A stretch of 64,000 nt of DNA. Origin: Shigella phage ESh36. Of the stretch, positions 2,376 through 42,263 are shown one piece after another. The DNA is taken from sequence record ON528746, one strand, 5' to 3'. A model generated the notes under the pieces. That model saw nothing but the letters and a program-made list of their open reading frames with translations. It was not told where the DNA came from and searched no databases. Numbering within the stretch: the stretch's first letter is position 1; each line of letters starts with the position of its first letter. The translations under genes and the position numbers were made by a program.

Positions 2376-3312
2376 ATTTAAATTGTTCTGTAACGTCTTC
2401 AACTACTTCGTATTGGCAGGTACGCATTTTAGCATCGTTGTAATCAATCGGAATTGATACTACATCACGCGGATGTACTTTAACTTTTACAACTCGGCTG
2501 GTTGAACTGCCAAAGTGACGAATATAAGATTTAGAACACACATGCAGACCGCGAGAACAAGTTTGTGTATCATCGTCATTCACACGAGTACGTGGCATTT
2601 TAACTACTTTACCCGGACTGTTATCAAAGGTGTTTGAGTGACAGTCAAAGTAGTTGTCACGAACTACTTTCCAAGCATAGAAGTAACCATCTTCGGTGAT
2701 TTCAATATCGTTTGCTACCAAGAAATCAAAGAGTCGAGATACCGCTTTTTGGCTTGGGTTTTCCAACAGATTTTCCAGGAACGGAAAATAAAATTCAAAG
2801 TTTTCACCTTTTTCCATCGAGTCAAGAATACGATCAACCAAACCAGATCGTAATTCGATATTTTGATAGAACAAGCTTCCACCTTCAATTCGAACATCAC
2901 CGGAAATATATTTTTCAACAGCGCGACGAACGTTAATTTTTTGCGCTGCTTCTTCCAATTTATCTGCAACAAGCAGATTAAGAATTTCTTGGAAGTTTGA
3001 ATGAGTATTAGGAGTTGCGTTATAAGTTACGCCGTCAACGGTAATTGAAATGAATTTTTTAGATGCATTCCAAATAATGTCAGATTTAGCAACTGGAGCA
3101 ATAACTGCATCGCTATTAACTTTAACTGTAATATCACCGCTAATAGTAACTTTAGAGCGTTTAGCTTCTTCAGCATTTTTCAAAACACGACGGATTGTGT
3201 CAACCGATACACCTTGCCAATCAGCCAATTCCTGTTGGGTGTAATTACCACTTGAATACAGCTTAACAATTTCAGCTTGTTCGTTTTTGGTCAGGCATTT
3301 AATATTGTACAT
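2374..3312 (-). CDS. rIIB: rIIB protein
   Basis: 312-aa ORF directly downstream of rIIA; size and position as in T4. Confidence 0.85.
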   Translation of the reverse strand: MYNIKCLTKNEQAEIVKLYSSGNYTQQELADWQGVSVDTIRRVLKNAEEAKRSKVTISGDITVKVNSDAVIAPVAKSDIIWNASKKFISITVDGVTYNATPNTHSNFQEILNLLVADKLEEAAQKINVRRAVEKYISGDVRIEGGSLFYQNIELRSGLVDRILDSMEKGENFEFYFPFLENLLENPSQKAVSRLFDFLVANDIEITEDGYFYAWKVVRDNYFDCHSNTFDNSPGKVVKMPRTRVNDDDTQTCSRGLHVCSKSYIRHFGSSTSRVVKVKVHPRDVVSIPIDYNDAKMRTCQYEVVEDVTEQFK

Positions 3313-3323
3313 AATTTTCCTTA

Positions 3324-5501
3324 TTAGGCCGCAAGGGCCTTCATAGTTTTAGCGATTTGGGAAACTTCATCATCACTTAAAGAGTTGCGATAACCGATGA
3401 AGTCGGAAACAATACGGAATTTCTTGGTAAACTCAGCAACCATTTTATCACTATTTTTTGAAGCATTACGTGATAATTCATCAAAGAGATTAGTTACTGT
3501 CCAGATATCATGACCAATGGTATCTTTTCCACCATTGAAATACACACCGCGTAATGAACTAACCATATTAGCGAGTCGTGTATATTCTTCAGAAACTTCA
3601 TCTGTACTGAAGTACTTCATCATAAAATCTAGTTCAGGATGCTTGATAATTTTATCAATATATCGTTGAGCTGAACTTGAATAACCTACATACTTATCAT
3701 AATCTACATCATCAAAAGCATCTACATATAAATCACGCAAAGCTTCAAAAATACATTGGCACTGACCGAGTTCTTTTACCTTTTTCTGTAAAAGCGGACG
3801 AATAACATAAAATTCATTAATGCCAATAAGATTAGCCATACGAATCAAAATATTCATAGATGGATGACAAAGTGATGTAGTACCATCCATAGAGAAAATA
3901 TCAGAACGATGCATATACGCTACATAACCAGTAATTTCATCTGCTTCTGACGTAAGTGTAAATAATTCCTCTTTTTCCCAACGCCCATCTTTAATTTCAA
4001 ACTTAAATGCTGTAGCAGCTTTAGGACGAGGAGCTTTACTTTTAACTGCCTTCGGAATATAACTTTTAACTAAAGCTTCAATTTCTGACAAATAATGAAT
4101 GTTAACTTCATCACTTTCAAACATTGCCATAATATCAGGGAGTAAATCAATCTGCGATTCTACTTCCGGATTAATAAACAAAAGACGCTCATTATGATGA
4201 ATATTCAAAGTGTTATTAAATTCACTATCATCTAACGCATGCGCTAATCCACGGACAATATTAACGCGATTTTTAATATTATCAATAACGATATTAATTT
4301 TTGTTGTATTAATACCGAACAGACGATAACTTGATGCAACGGCTGAAGTTTCATGACTTTGCTTAATGCGTTTCAGTCGAGGGTCAAGATTTACTTCATA
4401 CACAACTCCTGCATTGCATAGCTTACTATCTGGTTCAAACATGCTTTGCATCTTCTTATATGACAGATTTTTAGTCGTAAATTTGACTGAATTACTAATC
4501 ATATAATCTCGAGCAGAATATCCCATCTTCATCAATTCACGGTATGTATGACGAGGAGATGTAGATTCTTTAAATCGTTTTACATCTTCATTGAATGCCT
4601 TCTCACTAAGCTCTTTAACACGCTCAATAATATTTTTACGAGTACGATCATCTAATGAAAGAGCTTCGCGTGATGGAGCAATATCAAGTGAACCCATTGG
4701 AAACTTAATGTAATTCACTTCATTACGGATGCTTAACCAGTTACGGTCTCTAATAACACCATCAATAGGATAAACAATACCGCCGTAGATAGCATATAAT
4801 CCACCACGATCTGGCCAATATCTTTCTGGATTTACACCGTAATAGTCATCAAAATCCGGAAAATAATCAATTTCACGGTCAAGACCATTAATGATAGCCA
4901 AATCTTTGAATGGTCGCATGATATAAGAAACTTCATAAGCAAAGTTTCTAAAGTCTTTTTCTTCAACTGGAACTACGATTTCAATACCAGTTTTATCATC
5001 TGGACCCATTTCTTTTACGAATGTAGGTTTAATCTGTGGACCATCACCATCCATGTAAGCTACATAACCACGAATTTCACCTTTATGATATGAAGTAATA
5101 CTAAATGTATCAGTATAACTAAACGGAGATTTAGAACCTAAACCAAACCCGCCAATAAAGTCATTAGATTCAGCCTTAGATGAACTGAAGTATGAATTAT
5201 ACAGACCAGGAGAATTATCATCACCCTGAATATCAAAATCACTCATACCCGGACCAAAATCTCGACAAACAAATCGTGGATCTAAACGTCCAGGAACTTG
5301 TATGATAAATTTTTCAGGATTTCCATTGAGAGCATGGGCATCAATCATGTTGGTAATCAATTCACGGACTACTGCGCGAATTTTGTTTGTATACAAATCA
5401 GATGACAGAATTTTAAATACTTTAGGAGATGCTGTGATGCTAAATGCTTTTGATTTAGAACCATTACCAAGAATTGTTTCTTTTTCAGTGGTGATAATCA
5501 T
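3324..5501 (-). CDS. rIIA: rIIA protein
   Basis: 725-aa ORF beginning [27 protein letters not shown], matching recalled T4 rIIA N-terminus and length. Confidence 0.9.
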
Positions 5502-5511
5502 AATTTCCTCA

Positions 5512-5715
5512 TTAATTCATATTACGCTTAATAACTTCAGCAACTTCTAGTAGTTCATCTTTAGTTGCAGTGTCGGATTGAATTTTATCTCTAATATCCT
5601 TAAAGCGGTTTTTAAATTCTTCGGCTTCTCCCATATCGAAAAAGCGTTGAATGATTCTATATTCTCGATGAACTGCTTTATCAAAAAGTTCTAAATTTAC
5701 TTTATATGATTTCAT
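5512..5715 (-). CDS. rIIA.1-like small protein
   Basis: 67-aa ORF between gene 60 and rIIA, preceded by an early promoter. Confidence 0.6.
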
Positions 5716-5740
5716 TTCAATATCCTCATTTGCCCAATTA

Positions 5741-5770
5741 ATTATACCACATCCTTGTGGTAAAGTAAAC
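5741..5770 (-). promoter_or_regulatory. T4-type early promoter
   Basis: GTTTAC, 18 bp, TATAAT on minus strand; the -35 G is the last base of the gene 60 stop codon. Confidence 0.6.
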
Positions 5771-6302
5771 TACTGGCTCATCCATTCTTTACGAAGGTCA
5801 GCATTATCTCCCATGAGCATTTCAAAAAGCTCTTTCCAGTTCTCAGGAAGTTTAACAACATCATATACTGGATTTTGAATCATCTCACGATATTCAGATT
5901 TTTCCAAAGAGCCAAGTCCTTTAATATAACGGATGCTATGTTTAGGTAGAGCATCTTTGGCACTCTCATATTCAGCGACTGTATAAAACCATTCTTGTTT
6001 TTTACCGACCTGAGCGATGATTACAGGAGTTTTGACAAAGCGAATTCTTCCTTGTTCAAACAGTTCTGGCCAATTACTAAAAAATCCGAGCAGAGAAGGA
6101 TAAATAGAACCTAATCCAATAATCTCTTAATTATGAGGTATTTCTATAGATAGCCCGAAGGCTATCCATCGTGATCTGCGTCTGTCATAATAGCGACATT
6201 CGCATAGTTCATTGAAGAGGATTTAATAGAACGACGAACATTGTTCTGCAATTTATATTTTTTCATATCAACGCTAGAAGAATCAATTTTTACAAATTTC
6301 AT
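5770..6302 (-). CDS. 60: DNA topoisomerase II small subunit gp60, interrupted by 50-nt bypass; CDS = join(6165..6302, 5770..6114) on minus strand
   Basis: Codons 1-46 MKFVKIDSS...MTDADHDG end at take-off GGA, then UAG and a 50-nt gap with CUUCGG hairpin and landing GGA, then LGSIYPSLLGFF...EWMSQ in frame. Confidence 0.85.
6115..6164 (-). other. 50-nt translational bypass (hop) element of gene 60
   Basis: mRNA UAGCCUUCGGGCUAUCUAUAGAAAUACCUCAUAAUUAAGAGAUUAUUGGA between matched GGA codons. Confidence 0.85.
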
Positions 6303-24659: not shown

Positions 24660-26028
24660 ATTTAGTACCTACCGTAATACCATTGGCAATAGACATTCTT
24701 CCACGGTCTGTTGGAAACTTATGCATATCCGAGCATATGATTGTTTTACCTGATTTAAGAGTAATTTTGTATTTTTTAGAACGCTTCGGATGAGAAACTT
24801 GGATGACAGGTCTGAATCCATCATATGATTCGACCATATCACCTACTTTAACTTCATTGATGAATTTTTCACCCTTTAAAGTTTTTACTACAGTAGATTT
24901 ATCTAAACATTCTGCAATATCACTCATGTTAACATCAGAAGAATCCCAAGCTTGTTTACCAACCTGCGCTGCAGTCCAAAGAACAGTTTCGGTTTCAACA
25001 GCCAGAGCACGCAATTCCTCTGCAATAGCTTTAACAGTTGTGTAACTATTTTCTGAATAAACTCTAATGCGGCAAGATTTACAAATACCTAGATAGTCGA
25101 CAATAATGATTGTTGGAACAAAATTCTTCTTGAGCTTTAATTCATTTAAAAGTGATCGAAATGTATTAGCGTCTGCTCCACCAGTAGGATATTGCTTAAC
25201 GATTAAACGACCAAGGGTAGATTTCTCACGCCATTTTTCCATTTTTCCTTTATATTCAGCGTAAGAAATATGTCCATCATCAATATCGTCAAGAGAAACA
25301 TCGAGCATATTAGCATCAATACGCTTAGCACAGACTTCTTCTGCCATTTCCATGGAAATGTAAAGAACATTATGTCCGAGCTGCAAATAATCTGCTGCCA
25401 ATGAACACAAACCTAATGACTTACCGACGTTAACACCAGCCATTAAAACGTTCAGTGTTCCTGTCTCAGCTCCGCCTTTAGTAATTTTGTTTAGAATTCT
25501 GAGTTTAAATGGAACCTTACGAGCTTTATTCATATAAGATAGCCAACGTGCTTCGTAGTCATCCATCCAATCATGACCAACGTAGCTATCAAATGAAATT
25601 GATAATGCTTGCCGCATAATGTCAGGAATAGCACCAACATCCGGCATTTTCTTATTTCGTTTTTCCGGAGGAAGTTCAGCATTGGTTTGAATTTCGATTA
25701 TTTTAGACGTAGCATTAAACATCGCCCTTTGCTGAACATATTTTTCTGTTTCTTTTATTAACCAGCTGTGGTCTTCTGGAGAATCAGCCAGTTTTGAAAT
25801 AAGTGTTTTTACACCAGAATATTCTGTTTCAGTAAATGAACTATTTTCTAATGCAACATTTAACGCATTAATAGATGGAACGCTATGATACTCATTAACA
25901 TGAGATTTAATTAATTTGAACGTATTTTTAGCTGGACCACTTTCAAAATATTCTGAATCCATATATGGCCAAACTTTTGAAAAATAAGCTTGATCAAATA
26001 TGAGATGAGAAAGAATAATTTCTACCAC
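24643..26028 (-). CDS. 41: helicase gp41 N-terminal fragment: N-extein (373 aa) fused to split-intein N-half (88 aa)
   Basis: DnaB-like helicase with Walker A GVNVGKS up to ...NMSDIAE, then CLDKSTVVKTLKGEKF...TIICSDMHKFPT (intein blocks A/B) and stop. Confidence 0.8.
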   Translation of the reverse strand: MVEIILSHLIFDQAYFSKVWPYMDSEYFESGPAKNTFKLIKSHVNEYHSVPSINALNVALENSSFTETEYSGVKTLISKLADSPEDHSWLIKETEKYVQQRAMFNATSKIIEIQTNAELPPEKRNKKMPDVGAIPDIMRQALSISFDSYVGHDWMDDYEARWLSYMNKARKVPFKLRILNKITKGGAETGTLNVLMAGVNVGKSLGLCSLAADYLQLGHNVLYISMEMAEEVCAKRIDANMLDVSLDDIDDGHISYAEYKGKMEKWREKSTLGRLIVKQYPTGGADANTFRSLLNELKLKKNFVPTIIIVDYLGICKSCRIRVYSENSYTTVKAIAEELRALAVETETVLWTAAQVGKQAWDSSDVNMSDIAECLDKSTVVKTLKGEKFINEVKVGDMVESYDGFRPVIQVSHPKRSKKYKITLKSGKTIICSDMHKFPTDRGRMSIANGITVGTKFATNN

Positions 26029-26037
26029 ACTTACTCC

Positions 26038-26382
26038 TTAAAAGAATTTAAACTTTTTCTTTGACCTTTTATTAAATGCATCTTGTAGTTGCATTGTAAT
26101 ACATTTTTCTACATGAGGAGCTAACTCAGCTTTTCTTTCTTGGTCAAGAACAGCAAAGTCCATTACAACCTTTCCATTAACCCAATCTAATTTTGTCACA
26201 TACACAATGTGTGTAGAACCATCTTCTAGTTTAATGACAATCTCCTGGATAACATTTTCCATGGCAGATTTAATTATCTTAAGAGACTCATTAAAAAGAC
26301 GTTCTTTTCTTTCTTCTTCCCCCTCCGAAGAGGGGGATTCGTCGATAATTTCTAGATCTAAATCTAAATCATCTTTATTCAT
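26038..26382 (-). CDS. 40: gp40 head assembly protein-like
   Basis: ORF between uvsX and gene 41; ATG start MNKDDLDLD (track ORF extends to GTG at 26400). Confidence 0.55.
   Translation of the reverse strand: MNKDDLDLDLEIIDESPSSEGEEERKERLFNESLKIIKSAMENVIQEIVIKLEDGSTHIVYVTKLDWVNGKVVMDFAVLDQERKAELAPHVEKCITMQLQDAFNKRSKKKFKFF
26319..26336 (-). other. UUCG-tetraloop hairpin inside gene 40 coding region
   Basis: mRNA CCCCCUC-UUCG-GAGGGGG, 7-bp G/C stem, encoding SSEGEE. Confidence 0.5.
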
Positions 26383-27550
26383 TAAATTCTTCCATATCAC
26401 TTAACTGTTCGAGGTCAGTTTCTAAATCAGCAGCTGATTTACTTTTACTTTCTGGAGATTTAAATTTTTCAACCTTTGAGTTAATTAATTCATCAACTTC
26501 AGCTTCAACAATTTCATTACTATCAATAGCACCTAACTGATAAGCACGTTTAATAGCATCTCGGAATGGTTGATGTTTAAATAAAGGACCCCAGAATGTA
26601 GTGCAGTTAGTATCTTTTGCACGCCAAGATTTTTCTTCGCGAACCATCTCGCCGGTTTCTTCGTCAAGAAATTCACGAGCATACCAACCATTTTTAGGTT
26701 TTACAACAAATCCTAATTCTAGAGCCATATCTAACAATCCAGAATAAGGATCGATACCACCGTCAAATTTAACATCAATAAAGAATTTACTTTTTTCTTT
26801 AACGGTACGAGATTTTTCTACATTTAGAACAAATTGATACCCCTGAAGATCAGAACCATCTTTAATCTGGCGTTTACCGATAATGAATACGGTATCAGCC
26901 GAATACATCGGTCCAGTACCACCTCCCATAACTGTTTTACTAAACATTTCTTGTGTTTCGTATGTATGGTTAATAGCAATACATGGAATATTTTTAGTAC
27001 TAAAATAGGGAGTTACGATACGAAATAAGCTTTTCATTGTTTTAGCTCTAGTCATATCACTAACAACTTTTTCATTTAAAGCATCTTCAGTTTCTTTCTT
27101 AGAAGCTAAGTTACCAAGTGAATCGATAAAAACGACTACCTTTTCGCCGCGTTCAATTGCATCCAATTGATTAACCATGTCAATACGTAATTGCTCAAGT
27201 GATTGAACCGGAGTATGAATTACTCGTTCTGGATCGACTCCCATAGACCGCAAATAAGCAGGAGTAATACCAAATTCACTATCATAAAACAAACATACTG
27301 CATCAGGATATTGACGCATGTAAGATGACACCATTGTTAATCCAAAGTTTGATTTAAATGATTTTGATGGACCTGCCAAAATTAACAGACCAGATTGCAT
27401 ACCACCAGTAATTTCACCAGAAAGTGCAATATTCATCATAGGAATTTTTGTTCGAACTACATCTTTTTCATTAAAGAATTTAGATGCTGTTAATTCTGCA
27501 GTCAATTTAGAAGTAGAAGCTTTAATCAAACGAGATTTTAAATCAGACAT
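26375..27550 (-). CDS. uvsX: UvsX recombinase (RecA-like)
   Basis: 391-aa ORF with Walker A GPSKSFKS. Confidence 0.9.
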   Translation of the reverse strand: MSDLKSRLIKASTSKLTAELTASKFFNEKDVVRTKIPMMNIALSGEITGGMQSGLLILAGPSKSFKSNFGLTMVSSYMRQYPDAVCLFYDSEFGITPAYLRSMGVDPERVIHTPVQSLEQLRIDMVNQLDAIERGEKVVVFIDSLGNLASKKETEDALNEKVVSDMTRAKTMKSLFRIVTPYFSTKNIPCIAINHTYETQEMFSKTVMGGGTGPMYSADTVFIIGKRQIKDGSDLQGYQFVLNVEKSRTVKEKSKFFIDVKFDGGIDPYSGLLDMALELGFVVKPKNGWYAREFLDEETGEMVREEKSWRAKDTNCTTFWGPLFKHQPFRDAIKRAYQLGAIDSNEIVEAEVDELINSKVEKFKSPESKSKSAADLETDLEQLSDMEEFNE

Positions 27551-27558
27551 ATAATACC

Positions 27559-28236
27559 TTATAGTAGTGTTCTTGTTCCACGAAATACTTCGAGCATTCT
27601 TGCATAAGATTTATTTGGAAATCCAGCTTCAATTGCTAATTTTTTAAGCTTAATAGCACCGGGTTTTCCAGAGTTTTCCCATATTTCTTTAATCTTTTCA
27701 ATGTTATCCCACATTATTGGGTCACGTTTATGTGATGGTTTATTTCTATTATAACCATATGGATTATTAAGCAAAGCTTCTTTTCGTTTTGCTTTAGTTT
27801 CTTCTGACTGCTTTTTGCCTAGCTGGGCTTTCCGGCAAACATCACTAAATCCAAGATGTTTTGGTTTTCCTTTTTGAGCTTTTGAAATTTTTTCTTTGGT
27901 TTCTGATGAAACTCTATAACCAATTCTTCTACCACCCTCTCCACCAATTTTTAAATTATAAGTCATAGGATCATTTACCACATCTATTGTTACTAATTCT
28001 CTTTCAGCATCACGGGCTGATTTAAAATCTTTATAAAACCCAAGAATGCTTAAATTAAAATTTTTCTTACCATACTTTTTCTTGGCTTGTGCTAATAAAG
28101 TTCCTGATCCCATATAACCATCATTTAAATCATCGGTTGAATGAGTTCCATAGTAAATTTTATTATTAACTAAATTAGTTATAACATAAGTATAATTATA
28201 TTTCTTTTCTTTATGTCTTTTCATGTCATTAATCAA
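27559..28236 (-). CDS. segA: GIY-YIG homing endonuclease SegA-like
   Basis: GIY-YIG motif YNYTYVITNLVNNKIYYGTHS; located between uvsX and the glycosyltransferase as T4 segA. Confidence 0.65.
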   Translation of the reverse strand: MINDMKRHKEKKYNYTYVITNLVNNKIYYGTHSTDDLNDGYMGSGTLLAQAKKKYGKKNFNLSILGFYKDFKSARDAERELVTIDVVNDPMTYNLKIGGEGGRRIGYRVSSETKEKISKAQKGKPKHLGFSDVCRKAQLGKKQSEETKAKRKEALLNNPYGYNRNKPSHKRDPIMWDNIEKIKEIWENSGKPGAIKLKKLAIEAGFPNKSYARMLEVFRGTRTLL

Positions 28237-29077
28237 CTGCTATTGGATGAATAGCATTAAACTTATGAAATGCTTCTGATTTTTCTTTGCGCGAAACACA
28301 CATGCGAAGAACCTTTAATGGTTCATCTTCTTCACCCAATGATTTTCGTTTTTCAATATTAGAAGTTTTCCAACGAGCTTGCTCTGGAAACTCTCTATTG
28401 ATTTGCTCAAGCGCTCTATTATGTTTAGAATTACTACGAATTGAACTACACCCGCCGGGAGCGTGTGATTTTCCAGATACAACTAGATATTTGAACAAGG
28501 CCAAATGCGGATAACCTTGATTAATTAAATTGAGAAATGCATACATATCTTCGCATAAATCAATTTTTCCATACCCAATTTGTTCTGTCGTAAGTTTTCC
28601 GAGGTCATACCATGTATTCGTAAATCCATATGAATTTTCACGATAATTACCCCAAGATGAAGTAATTTTAAAAATTGGTAGACGAGCATGACCGTGATAA
28701 TACCCGCAATCCATAGCATCTTCAACGTATTGAATCAATTCGTAGAATTGTTCACGGGTTAATTGATTAATTTTATCTACGCGCCGTTTATCGTCTCTCT
28801 TTCGTATTGAACTCATACGAATAGTAGTATCATCATCAATCATCCAGATTCGTTGACCTGCATACATATCAGTAATTGCTTTACGAGTACCGGCAATTCC
28901 ATTAACATCATCAGGAATAGTTACAATTTTAGCTCTAGACCCATAAGCATCATAATAAGCTTTTTCTTCGTGTTCACGCACTACAATATGTGGTTCATAA
29001 TCAGTCGGAAACATATCAAGGGCAGAAACTGCCCCTACACGTTGATAGCTTGGAATTACGAATTGAATCATTTCCAC
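28229..29077 (-). CDS. GT-A type glycosyltransferase (DxD) at the beta-gt locus
   Basis: 282-aa ORF with IPSYQR and MIDDD motifs; unlike the 351-aa GT-B beta-gt recalled for T4. Confidence 0.5.
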   Translation of the reverse strand: MEMIQFVIPSYQRVGAVSALDMFPTDYEPHIVVREHEEKAYYDAYGSRAKIVTIPDDVNGIAGTRKAITDMYAGQRIWMIDDDTTIRMSSIRKRDDKRRVDKINQLTREQFYELIQYVEDAMDCGYYHGHARLPIFKITSSWGNYRENSYGFTNTWYDLGKLTTEQIGYGKIDLCEDMYAFLNLINQGYPHLALFKYLVVSGKSHAPGGCSSIRSNSKHNRALEQINREFPEQARWKTSNIEKRKSLGEEDEPLKVLRMCVSRKEKSEAFHKFNAIHPIAVD

Positions 29078-29808
29078 TCACCGTTATAATCTTTTTTCAC
29101 AATATGAGTTTCGCCAGTATTCCACCAATGATCAACCAAGTAAAAATGACGAGAATATACATGAAGACTTCCAACATTCCATATAATAGAGCCTGCTTTA
29201 TACTGACGAGTTGAATCGCCTGCATTCAAATCAGATACTAATTTATCTAATACGTATTTTTGCCATGCATAATCATTACGGAATCCGAAGACCACGTCAT
29301 TTGAGCGCATGCTTACTACTGCATTGACTTTCTTATCACGAATCAGGTACTGTACTGTATTCGTACACATGAAATCTGACATACCATCTTTATTGTAGTC
29401 AAATTGCATGGATGGACGAGTATAAATCATGATACCACGTCGAGAATCAGGATTTTGACCAAGTTCAGCTAAACACATATCATACTGAGCATAGTTATCT
29501 TCTGACCAGATAGCCCAACCATAATTCGAGTTAATTTCGCCTTTAGAAGATGCTACCTGCTGCCAAATCTTCGGTGTTTCACCTGGAATATCTTTAACGA
29601 ACAAGCTCTTAGATTTATACCATTCAAGTTCACGCTGAATGTATTCATCATTAAGAGCGCCAAAAATAAACGGTTCATCTGCTACAAATGATGCGCCAAT
29701 AATTTCAATAGTTTTAACGCCAGTTTTATCAATTACGAAATCTTTTTCCTTTAATGCAAGCCCCAAATGAAGACGGATTTCTTCAACTGTCATAGAGTCA
29801 TTAATCAT
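29068..29808 (-). CDS. 42: dCMP hydroxymethylase gp42
   Basis: 246-aa thymidylate-synthase-fold ORF; size and position as T4 gp42. Confidence 0.85.
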   Translation of the reverse strand: MINDSMTVEEIRLHLGLALKEKDFVIDKTGVKTIEIIGASFVADEPFIFGALNDEYIQRELEWYKSKSLFVKDIPGETPKIWQQVASSKGEINSNYGWAIWSEDNYAQYDMCLAELGQNPDSRRGIMIYTRPSMQFDYNKDGMSDFMCTNTVQYLIRDKKVNAVVSMRSNDVVFGFRNDYAWQKYVLDKLVSDLNAGDSTRQYKAGSIIWNVGSLHVYSRHFYLVDHWWNTGETHIVKKDYNGEWK

Positions 29809-29961
29809 TTAAACCTCAATTGATGCATTCATATTTAATTTGTAACAGTAATAAACCCCACCCTATGATAAGAGTTGGAATCATAGCAGGAACTGTTACG
29901 CTATAGTATATACTTATTATAATCATCAAGATTAAAAGCAATACTGCTAAAATTTTGCTTT

Positions 29962-30213
29962 TCATTCCTTCTCTCTGATGATAATTACTTGATTTTGCTG
30001 TGCAGATTTTTTAGTTTCACCAGCAATTGACCAAATAAAGGTAATAAACCAACCAATAATTGACCAGTTAAACAGTAAAGATGTGAAAAAGATTCCTACT
30101 GTCGATTTTGACCCGCGCATCAAGGCGATGAACCACGGAAGCATGTATATAATAATAGCCAACACGCCTGAAACTAAAACCATAAAAATTGAACCTGCTA
30201 CTAAAGTTTCCAT
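29962..30213 (-). CDS. imm: immunity protein Imm (membrane)
   Basis: 83-aa two-TM ORF between genes 43 and 42. Confidence 0.65.
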   Translation of the reverse strand: METLVAGSIFMVLVSGVLAIIIYMLPWFIALMRGSKSTVGIFFTSLLFNWSIIGWFITFIWSIAGETKKSAQQNQVIIIREKE

Positions 30214-30220
30214 GTTTTCC

Positions 30221-30601
30221 TCACTTAGTCAAATTTTTTACACATGAATTATAAGAATTCACTACATACTCCATCGGAGCATTTTTACCAGTACGCCATT
30301 GGTAATTATTAGCCCAATTAGCCCAAAGTTCAGCACAGTAGTTTTCAATTTTTTCTTCGCGTGTAATTACATCTGAATTACGATATGCTTGAGCAGATTC
30401 ATCTGGACGAATAGCTTCGTCAAAATTCGCCTGCATTTGTTCTACTGTCTGTTTTGGAGCTTCTTTATAACATTTAACATTAGGATTATAAAATTTGCTT
30501 GAACAGTTTACAATTTTTCCTACATCAGACTGATTTACTACCGGTCCTTGAGCTACACAACCAGTAAGACCTAATGCAATAACCAAAATAGCGATTTTCA
30601 T
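30221..30601 (-). CDS. putative lipoprotein
   Basis: 126-aa ORF with signal peptide and LTGC lipobox. Confidence 0.5.
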   Translation of the reverse strand: MKIAILVIALGLTGCVAQGPVVNQSDVGKIVNCSSKFYNPNVKCYKEAPKQTVEQMQANFDEAIRPDESAQAYRNSDVITREEKIENYCAELWANWANNYQWRTGKNAPMEYVVNSYNSCVKNLTK

Positions 30602-30611
30602 AATAATTTCC

Positions 30612-30848
30612 TCAAATACAAGTAGTAATTACTCCAGTAGTGCTTATGCAGGTATTACCCATTTGCACACCTAAAGATCCATTTGTATTCACATGAAGAT
30701 TATCATCAATTTTAACTGATATTTTACCATTAGTGTGAATAACGGTGCTAGATTCAATCACAGGTTGAGTATCATTTTCAACACTAACAAATGGAACTGC
30801 TGCTAATGCAACTAAACAAACTGCTAAGCATCCCATAACAATTTTCAT
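30612..30848 (-). CDS. small secreted/membrane protein
   Basis: ATG at 30848 (MKIVMGCLAVCL) with GGAG SD and early promoter; track ORF extends through promoter. Confidence 0.45.
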   Translation of the reverse strand: MKIVMGCLAVCLVALAAVPFVSVENDTQPVIESSTVIHTNGKISVKIDDNLHVNTNGSLGVQMGNTCISTTGVITTCI

Positions 30849-30885
30849 TTCATTCTCCAAATCCGTATCAGTAGTTGATAGTTGT

Positions 30886-30915
30886 ATAGTACCACAGAGG
30901 AACAGTCTTGTAAAC
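30886..30915 (-). promoter_or_regulatory. T4-type early promoter
   Basis: GTTTAC, 18 bp, TACTAT; part of a repeated cassette. Confidence 0.6.
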
Positions 30916-31003
30916 CGTTTTGTGAAAAATTTTTTAATGAATTCCAAAGGTCCAGAATCATCTATTTTTCCTAAGTATAGATTTATATTACTTGTATGAA
31001 AAA

Positions 31004-31019
31004 GGGACCCGGAGGTCCC
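31004..31019 (-). terminator. hairpin terminator after gene 43
   Basis: mRNA GGGACC-UCCG-GGUCCC followed by UUUUUC. Confidence 0.5.
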
Positions 31020-31032
31020 TAGATTTATTCTA

Positions 31033-33729
31033 TCAGCCAAACAGGAAGTCTAACGAAGCTTTTTCTTCATAGTCCATACCAGCCGATTCACACATGCCCG
31101 CAAGCGGTTTAACAAACGATTTTTGGAACAAAGTTGAGTAGTCAATCCAAGATAGTACATCAGAACGAATTTCTTTTGGAAGTTCTGTGCCCGACGGCCA
31201 AGCAATGCACTTGTCACCAAATGGATTTCCTTCACGCAATGGAAGAACCATTACTTTATTTCCATCCAAAATTGGAGCTACACCCAGACCACTAACAGCT
31301 CGACGATAAGTTAGCACACCGCGAATATGGAACGGACATTTAAATCCTGGCCAACCTTTATCATCATATTTTGCTATATCGTTCGCAGTTTTTACTTCAG
31401 CAATAACTTTATAGTCAAGTTGACGATATTCTTTCTCGAAGTTCTTGTAGTATTCTTGGACAGACTCTTCACCTTCCTGAAGAATACGACGAATACTTTC
31501 TTCGAGAGCTTCTTGTACTGCTTTTGGTGTTGAACTCTGCTGAGTTTCCATACCCATGATTTTTAGATGCGGTTCAGCAAATCGCTTATCTTCCATATCA
31601 TAAACGTTCAGAGCATAACGTTTTTTCGCTTTCCAAAATCCACCAACACCCTTTGAACCAAGCGGAGGGCAAGAAATAGCTTCACGGTCCATATGCATCA
31701 GATGCTCGCGGTTATTCATATAGTCACATAACTCACGATATGCAACATCAATCATAGGTTCCATCTTTTTCTTACCGAACTGATTCATGAATTCAACTAA
31801 ATCATTTTGTTCTTTAAAGCGATCAAGACCTACTTTTTCAATAACTTTATCTACACAAACGTATACCGAATCAGTATCACCTGCTGCGATGAAATCTTCA
31901 CCATTAGTTCCACACACTTTATTTAGATATTCATTAATTTTGCGAGCAATCCACTGAATACCGACTTGACCGAAAATTGTGATAGCAGTAGCATTTCGCA
32001 AATCATAGTAACGGAAATGAATATTACCAAGAGCACCATAAAGACTGTTAATAAGAATTTTACGGTTCAACTGATTTGTGTTAGCAAGCGTAGCTGCTTT
32101 TTCACATTCTTCGATCAGACTATTAAGAACAGATTCAGTGTAATTCGATAATTCGTTTAAGAAATCATCACTGAACTTAACATATCGTTCAACTTCTGGT
32201 TTAGTTGAACAAGACCCTGCACCTTTCATAATAATCTTTTTAATAGCTTCGGCATTCATTTCTTCCGCGAACATTTTCTTTTTCCAATCTTTACGCTGGA
32301 AAAATACTTTAGCGATTTCCTTTGGAATGATACCTTCTTGGTGCTTATCATACATCCATCCATTCGGAGAGCAAGAATATTCATCACTTGGCTTAGGAGC
32401 TGTTCCTGCGATATATTCATGAATTGGATGAACTTTAAACTGCCCACGAATAGTCTCAGGACTAATGTTAACCTGACGAATAATGCTAGGATACAGAGAC
32501 GTCAAGTCAAAACTCATAATGTATCGACGAGCAATCGGTTTAGGTTCAAACACAAATGCACCTGGAAAACTCTGTTTAACGTGCGAACCTTGTTGAGGAA
32601 TAACCTTATGTTCACCTTTCAGTGAGTTAAAAATAATAGCATCCCAAGTTTTAATAGGACTCATTACACCAGAAAAAGGCATTTTAGCGTAATAAGACAT
32701 ACTTAAAACTAGATCGATAAACCCACGAATTTTATCAATTGCTTGAACTGATTCTACGTCAATGATGTTATAACTAATGTATCGTTGATGATTAGTCTCA
32801 CGAAGTTTATTAATAGGACCATCGTACGGCAATTTACCTTTTTTGGTTTCATGTTGAGCAACTGATTCCAAAGAGAACGATGGCAAATTAGTAAATGCGA
32901 ATTTCTTGTACAAATCTAAATAATCAAGAATAGATACGCCATCAATAGAATAAATTTCTTTGCTACCGTACATATTTTGAATTAGTTTAGATTTTACTCG
33001 ACCGATTGGAGAGAAGCGTTTCATACTACGTTCACCGAGAACCATTTTAACGCGATTCATGATATACGGAACGTCAAATCCCTCAATATTCCAACCAGTA
33101 AAAATAGCAGGTCGTTTCTGTTCCCAAAGATTGATATATTCCATGAGCATATCACGCTCATTATCGAATGGCATATAAATTACTCGGTCAAGAATTTCTT
33201 GAGGAACTTCATCACCACCTTCACAGTCAAGCTTAGCAGCTAACTTTGCATCCCATTTTGATACTGAACCGTACATTGAATTCAACAAATCAAAGACGTA
33301 AAAACGATCGTCAATTGAATCATAATGAGTGATAGCATCAATTTCATATTCAGCTTTCATTGGGTCAGGAAATTTATCACCAGTAACCTCAATGTCACAG
33401 TTAGCTACACGAACAAATTTTCGGTCATAAACAATTTCTGAACCATATGTATCACTGATATAAGCGAGTTTAAAATCGTTCATACCGAGAGCTTCGAGAC
33501 CAATGTCTTCCATTCGTTTCATCCAGTCTCGTGCATCTTTCATTGATGGAAATTTTTGAGGAGCGCAGTTTTTACCATAGATGTCTTTGTACTTTGACTC
33601 TTCCTTACAGTGCCTAAACATAGTCGGAAGATATTCTACTTCACGAGTACGTTCCTTTCCGTTTTCATCAATATAACGTTCAACAATGTTATTTCCGACT
33701 GTTTCAATAGAGATATAAAATTCTTTCAT
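31033..33729 (-). CDS. 43: DNA polymerase gp43 (family B)
   Basis: 898-aa ORF with exonuclease and polymerase motifs; length equals T4 gp43. Confidence 0.92.
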   Translation of the reverse strand: MKEFYISIETVGNNIVERYIDENGKERTREVEYLPTMFRHCKEESKYKDIYGKNCAPQKFPSMKDARDWMKRMEDIGLEALGMNDFKLAYISDTYGSEIVYDRKFVRVANCDIEVTGDKFPDPMKAEYEIDAITHYDSIDDRFYVFDLLNSMYGSVSKWDAKLAAKLDCEGGDEVPQEILDRVIYMPFDNERDMLMEYINLWEQKRPAIFTGWNIEGFDVPYIMNRVKMVLGERSMKRFSPIGRVKSKLIQNMYGSKEIYSIDGVSILDYLDLYKKFAFTNLPSFSLESVAQHETKKGKLPYDGPINKLRETNHQRYISYNIIDVESVQAIDKIRGFIDLVLSMSYYAKMPFSGVMSPIKTWDAIIFNSLKGEHKVIPQQGSHVKQSFPGAFVFEPKPIARRYIMSFDLTSLYPSIIRQVNISPETIRGQFKVHPIHEYIAGTAPKPSDEYSCSPNGWMYDKHQEGIIPKEIAKVFFQRKDWKKKMFAEEMNAEAIKKIIMKGAGSCSTKPEVERYVKFSDDFLNELSNYTESVLNSLIEECEKAATLANTNQLNRKILINSLYGALGNIHFRYYDLRNATAITIFGQVGIQWIARKINEYLNKVCGTNGEDFIAAGDTDSVYVCVDKVIEKVGLDRFKEQNDLVEFMNQFGKKKMEPMIDVAYRELCDYMNNREHLMHMDREAISCPPLGSKGVGGFWKAKKRYALNVYDMEDKRFAEPHLKIMGMETQQSSTPKAVQEALEESIRRILQEGEESVQEYYKNFEKEYRQLDYKVIAEVKTANDIAKYDDKGWPGFKCPFHIRGVLTYRRAVSGLGVAPILDGNKVMVLPLREGNPFGDKCIAWPSGTELPKEIRSDVLSWIDYSTLFQKSFVKPLAGMCESAGMDYEEKASLDFLFG

Positions 33730-41061: not shown

Positions 41062-42263
41062 TATTTTGTAATAATGTCAAATTGTTCTTTAAAGCAGAAG
41101 CTTGAATCTTGATGCTGATACAAAAATTCATAAGCTTTTTCGCGTTCGCGGTCATAAAGAGCTCGGTCAGATGACAGTTCTTTAATACGTTCAAATGTTG
41201 ATTCCATGTCATTTTCATCAAACCAAACGATACCGCTATCATGAGAAATTAACGGAGTATTATCAACACGAAATTTTAAATTTTCGCCAGTAGATTTCCA
41301 AAATACTGGAATTGTTCCGCATGCACCAAGCTCTAGATGAGTATATTCTAAAGAACGTTGTAGATATTTTTTATCTAATTTACTCAGCTGATAACCAAAT
41401 CCGGATTTACTCATGCGTTCAAGCATTTCACTATTTACATAACGGTCAAGAATTTGCGTTGGCAAATTAGGAGCAATTTTAATTTGGTCTACTTGATGAA
41501 GACGATAATACTCATATGGAATTCCTTTTTCTTTAATAGGAATGAACGCTGGAGAACGTTCCAGACCTTCCATAATAGTACTTAGTCCTGCAGGTTTAAG
41601 ATGTTTTTCGTGAAAATCAAACATCTGATAAAAACCTTTCCATGTAGTCGTACGACCAATCCAACGGTTGACATTCATATTAATTTCAGAAACATCTTTC
41701 CAGTATGTTGATCGAACCTTCGCAATATCCATAGGAGGCTGAAAGTTGTATACAGTCGGTGCTTCTTCAATATCATCAAACAGAGAAACTGTTTCTGGAT
41801 ACCATTCTTTCATCAAAACTTTATTAAAATCGCCATTATCAGAATGGCTAAAAATAACATCAGCTCGACGAACAGTTTCTTCTAATCCCAAATTTCGGCG
41901 CAAAGAAAGAGAAGAATGGTCATGTTGATAAACTACAACACGAACCGAAGGTTTAATGTTATCAATAATTTTTTTATAGTTATTAATAGTGTCTTCTTCG
42001 ACTGAAGTAGCAGGAACTGAATTGATAATTAGAATATCACAATCATTTACCAGCTTAAGTGTTTTATCGTATTCTTTTGCCAATAAAACCGGAATTGAAA
42101 ATGATTTATAATCATGCGCGCAATTACGAGTAAATGATTTATCTTTAGCATAAACCAAAGTTACTTCATGACCATTTTTAATAAACCAATCACGCTGCTC
42201 GAGAGAAAATTTAGTTACGCCGCAACCTTCAAGACCTCGAGCCATAAAAATGCATACTTTCAT
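41061..42263 (-). CDS. a-gt: DNA alpha-glucosyltransferase
   Basis: 400-aa ORF; size and position between genes 55 and 47 match T4 alpha-gt. Confidence 0.8.
   Translation of the reverse strand: MKVCIFMARGLEGCGVTKFSLEQRDWFIKNGHEVTLVYAKDKSFTRNCAHDYKSFSIPVLLAKEYDKTLKLVNDCDILIINSVPATSVEEDTINNYKKIIDNIKPSVRVVVYQHDHSSLSLRRNLGLEETVRRADVIFSHSDNGDFNKVLMKEWYPETVSLFDDIEEAPTVYNFQPPMDIAKVRSTYWKDVSEINMNVNRWIGRTTTWKGFYQMFDFHEKHLKPAGLSTIMEGLERSPAFIPIKEKGIPYEYYRLHQVDQIKIAPNLPTQILDRYVNSEMLERMSKSGFGYQLSKLDKKYLQRSLEYTHLELGACGTIPVFWKSTGENLKFRVDNTPLISHDSGIVWFDENDMESTFERIKELSSDRALYDREREKAYEFLYQHQDSSFCFKEQFDIITK

Follow-up and report, generated by a model that had tools for sequence, protein, structure and literature searches.

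The enzyme with which phages T2 and T6 transfer glucose onto alpha-glucosyl-5-hydroxymethylcytosine (alpha-glucosyl-hmC), resulting in gentiobiosyl-hmC, has been described (PMC13216743). The tequatroviruses EL, BGP and Geo encode an alpha-glucosyltransferase (alpha-gt) as well as a TET-associated glycosyltransferase (TAGT), the latter at the position syntenic to the T4 beta-glucosyltransferase (beta-gt), and have no beta-gt (PMC13390438). Their DNA contains 5-hydroxymethyldeoxycytidine (5-hmdC) and its alpha-glucosyl (alpha-glc-mdC) and alpha-gentiobiosyl (alpha-gent-mdC) forms at a ratio of about 1:2:2, and no beta-glc-mdC (PMC13390438). In T2, only about 5% of the cytosines are gentiobiosylated (PMC13390438); in T6, this is about 72%. 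Here, the gene between segA and gene 42 is analyzed in a stretch of 64,000 nucleotides from Shigella phage ESh36 (ON528746), referred to as the window. This gene very probably encodes a TAGT of the T2/T6 type, in a pathway leading from gene 42 through alpha-gt and TAGT to gentiobiosyl-hmC. What the T2/T6-type enzyme makes and where its gene lies have been on record since T2 and T6 were studied, and papers from 2026 describe this once more for identical proteins. The finding is therefore correct but already known, and it adds an annotation and no new biology.

Identity of the gene between segA and gene 42

A first-pass annotation of the window had placed a 282-residue glycosyltransferase (GT) of the GT-A type at this locus, in place of the T4 beta-gt, and had proposed a profile search and a comparison with T2 and T6 as checks. 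Both checks point to the TAGT family. The protein matches Pfam PF20691 (TAGT) with 39.1 bits (gathering cut-off 27.5) over positions 2-205 of the 205 in the profile, and PHROG 842, 'beta-glucosyl-HMC-alpha-glucosyltransferase', at E = 1.4e-88. Over the full 280 amino acids (aa), it is 96.8% identical to the T2 and 96.1% identical to the T6 enzyme. Protein BGP_052 of Escherichia phage vB_Eco_BGP (CAL1641035.1) is 100% identical to it, as is the 280-aa TAGT of Yersinia phage PST, and the exact sequence is found in 65 contigs of a large protein collection. Using tblastn, 688 phage records were matched, of which about 474 reach at least 90% identity, including T2, T6, RB32, RB51 and Yersinia phage PST, while Klebsiella and Enterobacter phages carry a TAGT group with 64-66% identity.

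The motifs IPSYQR and MIDDD, on which the first-pass annotation had based its GT-A assignment, are both present, the latter as residues 77-81 (encoded at 28829-28843). To place them in the family, 52 members were collected in two homology searches and 48 were aligned, after which the structure was predicted. Within these 48 sequences, D79, D80 and D81 show no variation and R11 (encoded at 29039-29041) is invariant; the window gene is intact and conserved at all family-invariant positions. No solved structure related to TAGT was detectable by sequence search. The predicted structure (mean predicted local distance difference test score, pLDDT, 93.4; predicted template modelling score, pTM, 0.91) is a single-domain GT-A fold, and its structural matches are only GT-A and nucleotidyltransferase-like folds: B4GALNT1 (9H6J; match score 13.6), WrtF (9OMH; 13.5), AvpGT (9JMA; 13.2), GnT-I (1FO9; 13.1), TarP (6H1J; 12.4), BcsA (4P00; 12.2) and STIV A197 (2C0N; 11.6). 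TAGT is probably an inverting, DxD-containing transferase of uridine diphosphate (UDP)-glucose with a GT-A fold.

The genomic context agrees with this identification, as TAGT directly follows gene 42 and the window encodes an alpha-gt and no T4-type beta-gt. Both the location between segA and gene 42 and the alpha-gt further along had been recognized in the first-pass annotation (Table 1). Protein identity, synteny, fold, motif conservation, the absence of beta-gt and the presence of alpha-gt, all obtained here, form the basis of the TAGT assignment.

Proposed modification pathway and alternatives

In the proposed pathway, the gene 42 product would make hydroxymethyl-deoxycytidine monophosphate (hm-dCMP), which would enter the DNA at replication. 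The alpha-gt would then attach an alpha-linked glucose to hmC in the DNA, forming the acceptor for TAGT, which would link another glucose to some of the alpha-glucosyl-hmC by a beta-1,6 bond and so give gentiobiosyl-hmC. The phage DNA is thus predicted to contain free hmC, alpha-glucosyl-hmC and alpha-gentiobiosyl-hmC, and no beta-monoglucosyl-hmC because a T4-type beta-gt is lacking. By analogy, the phage would perform the same chemistry as T2, T6 and BGP. Several points weigh against this reading. The chemistry is taken from the literature on T2, T6 and BGP. How far diglucosylation goes is not readable from the sequence, as T2 and T6 differ this widely (about 5% versus 72%) with enzymes that are about 96% identical. 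In addition, the alpha-gt is a distinct allele that shares only about 91% identity with the T4 and BGP enzymes and could thereby shift the ratio, and the absence of beta-gt rests on 64 kb of the genome, although the canonical beta-gt slot is occupied.

The position of the gene in the T4 beta-gt slot would also fit a divergent or replaced T4 beta-gt with a GT-B fold, making beta-monoglucosyl-hmC. A tblastn search with the 351-aa T4 beta-gt, however, gave no homolog in the window (best E = 1.2, away from the TAGT locus), the TAGT protein has no match to the profile of the T4 beta-gt family (PF09198), and its model is GT-A and does not have the two-domain GT-B fold. These three results rule out a divergent beta-gt, the probability of which is considered negligible, and the first-pass annotation was right to set the protein apart from that enzyme. 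A different sugar, or direct action on hmC leading to a pattern unlike that of T2 and T6, is very improbable. TAGT-family members do occur alone or with a beta-GT in other phages, with specificities that are not uniform (PMC13216743), and the specificity of the window protein is predicted by homology. Nevertheless, this protein is identical to that of BGP and 96-97% identical to those of T2 and T6, phages in which gentiobiose is formed, and, as in the latter two, it is accompanied by gene 42 and alpha-gt. Of the two outcomes that the first-pass annotation had left side by side, T2/T6-like gentiobiosylation or another sugar, the former is supported. The latter, e.g., arabinosylation of the Mosigvirus type, was rejected, since the hydroxymethylase encoded by gene 42 is of the T4 type and an identical protein occurs in a phage for which gentiobiose has been measured.

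It is also conceivable, but unlikely, that the TAGT contributes little and that the DNA is essentially alpha-monoglucosylated with free hmC. This is the situation in T2, where the gene is 96.8% identical and yet so few cytosines are gentiobiosylated (PMC13390438), and the alpha-gt allele differs by 9% from that of BGP. In BGP itself, however, with an identical TAGT, gentiobiosyl-mdC is about as abundant as glucosyl-mdC. Furthermore, both T2 records carry R11H at a position that is invariant in the family and the window protein keeps R11; therefore, T2 may be the atypical case. Which defences of the host a T-even phage evades and which it sets off depends on the sugar pattern on hmC; McrBC/McrA, GmrSD/BrxU, Brig1, a glycosylase specific for alpha-glucosyl, and CRISPR-Cas are examples. 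Typing of alpha-gt and TAGT therefore aids the prediction of host range and the choice of therapeutic phages.

Gene model, neighboring genes and mosaic structure

Table 1. Positions of TAGT, its motifs and related features in the window.
Feature	Position	Strand	Remarks
TAGT (beta-glucosyl-HMC-alpha-glucosyltransferase) coding sequence	28229..29071	minus	280 aa at 28232-29071; stop codon 28229-28231
ATGA, TAGT start codon overlapping the gene 42 TGA	29071-29068	minus	from the sequence; same 4-nt overlap annotated in T2, T6 and BGP
IPSYQR, aa 6-11	29039-29056	minus	in the Rossmann-like nucleotide-binding half (first beta-strand and loop); strand E3-7 in the AlphaFold2 (AF2) model
DDD, aa 79-81, predicted DxD-type metal/nucleotide-sugar binding motif	28829..28837	minus	directly after strand E74-78 in the model
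segA, T4-type GIY-YIG homing endonuclease	27559..28224 (27562-28224 coding)	minus	immediately downstream of TAGT; 99.5% identical to T4 SegA; GIY-YIG and NUMOD3 domains
Gene 42, dCMP hydroxymethylase	29068..29808 (29071-29808 coding)	minus	96.3% identical to T4 gp42; PF00303 match
alpha-gt, 400 aa	41061..42263 (41064-42263 coding)	minus	90.8% identical to T4 alpha-gt; PF11440, 782.7 bits
Mosaic junction	28227..28251		pairwise blastn; T4-type left, T2/T6-type right

The open reading frame (ORF) listed at the TAGT locus (28229..29077, minus strand) has 282 aa and a GTG start, and this length had been adopted in the first-pass annotation. The ATG at 29071-29069 is the third codon of this ORF and is preceded by GGTGAG. 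The protein probably has 280 aa because this ATG overlaps the gene 42 stop codon, follows GGTGAG and corresponds to the start annotated for the equivalent gene in T2, T6 and BGP; GTG 29077 was rejected as the start. The ATGA overlap suggests translational coupling and co-transcription with gene 42, with which TAGT is probably co-translated. Scans for promoters and terminators around TAGT gave no excess over shuffled controls (15 promoter-like sites, 15.2 expected), and a terminator-like hairpin at 29037-29017, inside the coding region, was taken as chance.

Using blastn, region 26000-28251 (genes 41, 40, uvsX and segA) was found to match T4 at 99.0% identity, compared to only 89% for T2 and T6. 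For 28227-30613 (TAGT, gene 42, imm and imm.1), the identity is 96.2% with T2 and 96.1% with T6. The T4 similarity breaks at the segA/TAGT boundary and restarts only at 29086, inside gene 42, and TAGT therefore exactly replaces the T4 b-gt cassette. The T2, T6 and BGP records have no segA at the corresponding position, and the whole stretch 27500-30000 is covered by only eight of 509 matching phage records. A plausible origin would be homing driven by SegA into a T2-type genome, together with co-conversion of the flank on the uvsX side.

Other parts of the window also deviate from T4. The alpha-gt is about 91% identical to the enzymes of T4 and vB_Eco_BGP, with differences clustering at aa 46-52 and 240-300, while the replication genes next to it show 96-99% identity with T4. 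In the region that separates imm.1 from gene 43 (30602-31040), about 230 bp do not align to T4 and the alignments to T2 and T6 differ; the product of a small ORF in this region is hydrophobic and signal-like at its N-terminus (MKIVMGCLAVCLVALAAVPF...).

The interruption of gene 41 is much more unusual than the TAGT finding. Residues 1-373 of T4 gp41 align to 26028-24910 and residues 374-475 to 23356-23051. The N-terminal part continues in frame into 88 aa starting with CLDKST, followed by a stop; after it, a 332-aa ORF is found at 24659-23661, and in the third ORF the non-gp41 part ends with GILTKN, followed by Ser+1. Joining the non-gp41 halves gives a match (E = 3.5e-25) to the cyanophage-like gp41-1 split intein (PDB 6QAZ), and the position of the break agrees. 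Such a 'fractured gene' arrangement has been described by Dassa et al. (2009) from assembled ocean-sampling (GOS) metagenome reads (PMC2677866). Neither blastn nor tblastn matched the 1.55-kb insert to any of 50,697 phage records. For the 332-aa ORF, nothing significant was obtained in Pfam and PHROG scans and six matches, its own cluster included, were obtained among 1.84 billion representative proteins; its putative identification as an endonuclease comes from structure comparison only. It is the same as an ESh36 protein annotated as hypothetical.

Comparison with known systems

In T2 and T6, the TAGT gene ('ggt' or beta-alpha-gt) likewise follows gene 42 directly on its downstream side, overlaps it by 4 nt as in the window and has an alpha-gt partner. 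The T2 and T6 proteins differ from the window TAGT at nine and 11 residues, respectively, and the T4-type segA downstream of TAGT in the window is not present in T2 or T6. BGP likewise has no segA between TAGT and uvsX, and its alpha-gt is only 91% identical to that of the window. In the compared stretches, the T2 gene (3007-3849 and 5283-6125) carries R11H in two independent records. Of the T6 genes (3007-3846 and 3138-3980), that of AP018814 has a DDD motif short of one Asp codon, and that of MH550421 has Q10stop, with the coding sequence annotated from M20. At the positions where these T2 and T6 reference records deviate, the window TAGT has the family consensus. It might be speculated that R11H lies behind the low (about 5%) gentiobiosylation in T2. 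There is also a slight chance that a consensus TAGT combined with the roughly 91% identical alpha-gt allele gives a glucosyl/gentiobiosyl ratio or sequence-context pattern unlike those of T2, T6 and BGP, in which case R11H in T2 and the Asp loss or Q10stop in T6 would be determinants of the 5% versus 72%.

The cellular GT2-like GT-A enzymes TarP (6H1J), TarS (5TZE), AvpGT (9JMA) and GnT-I (1FO9) have 7-16% sequence identity to TAGT, and their acceptors are glycans, lipids or teichoic acids, whereas the acceptor of TAGT is a sugar on DNA. The T4 beta-gt shares with TAGT the slot between segA and gene 42, the use of UDP-glucose on hmC-containing DNA and the expected beta linkages. However, it is a 351-aa GT-B enzyme, unrelated in sequence and fold to the 280-aa GT-A protein of the window, and it acts on bare hmC instead of alpha-glucosyl-hmC (PMC13216743). 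At 90% identity or more, the T4-type beta-gt is found in about 29 phage records, compared to about 474 for the window-type TAGT, and only six of 753 GT-encoding phages combine an alpha-GT with a beta-GT (PMC13216743). T4 is thus the exception and the arrangement of the window is the norm, with TAGT as the usual occupant of this slot in T4-like coliphages.
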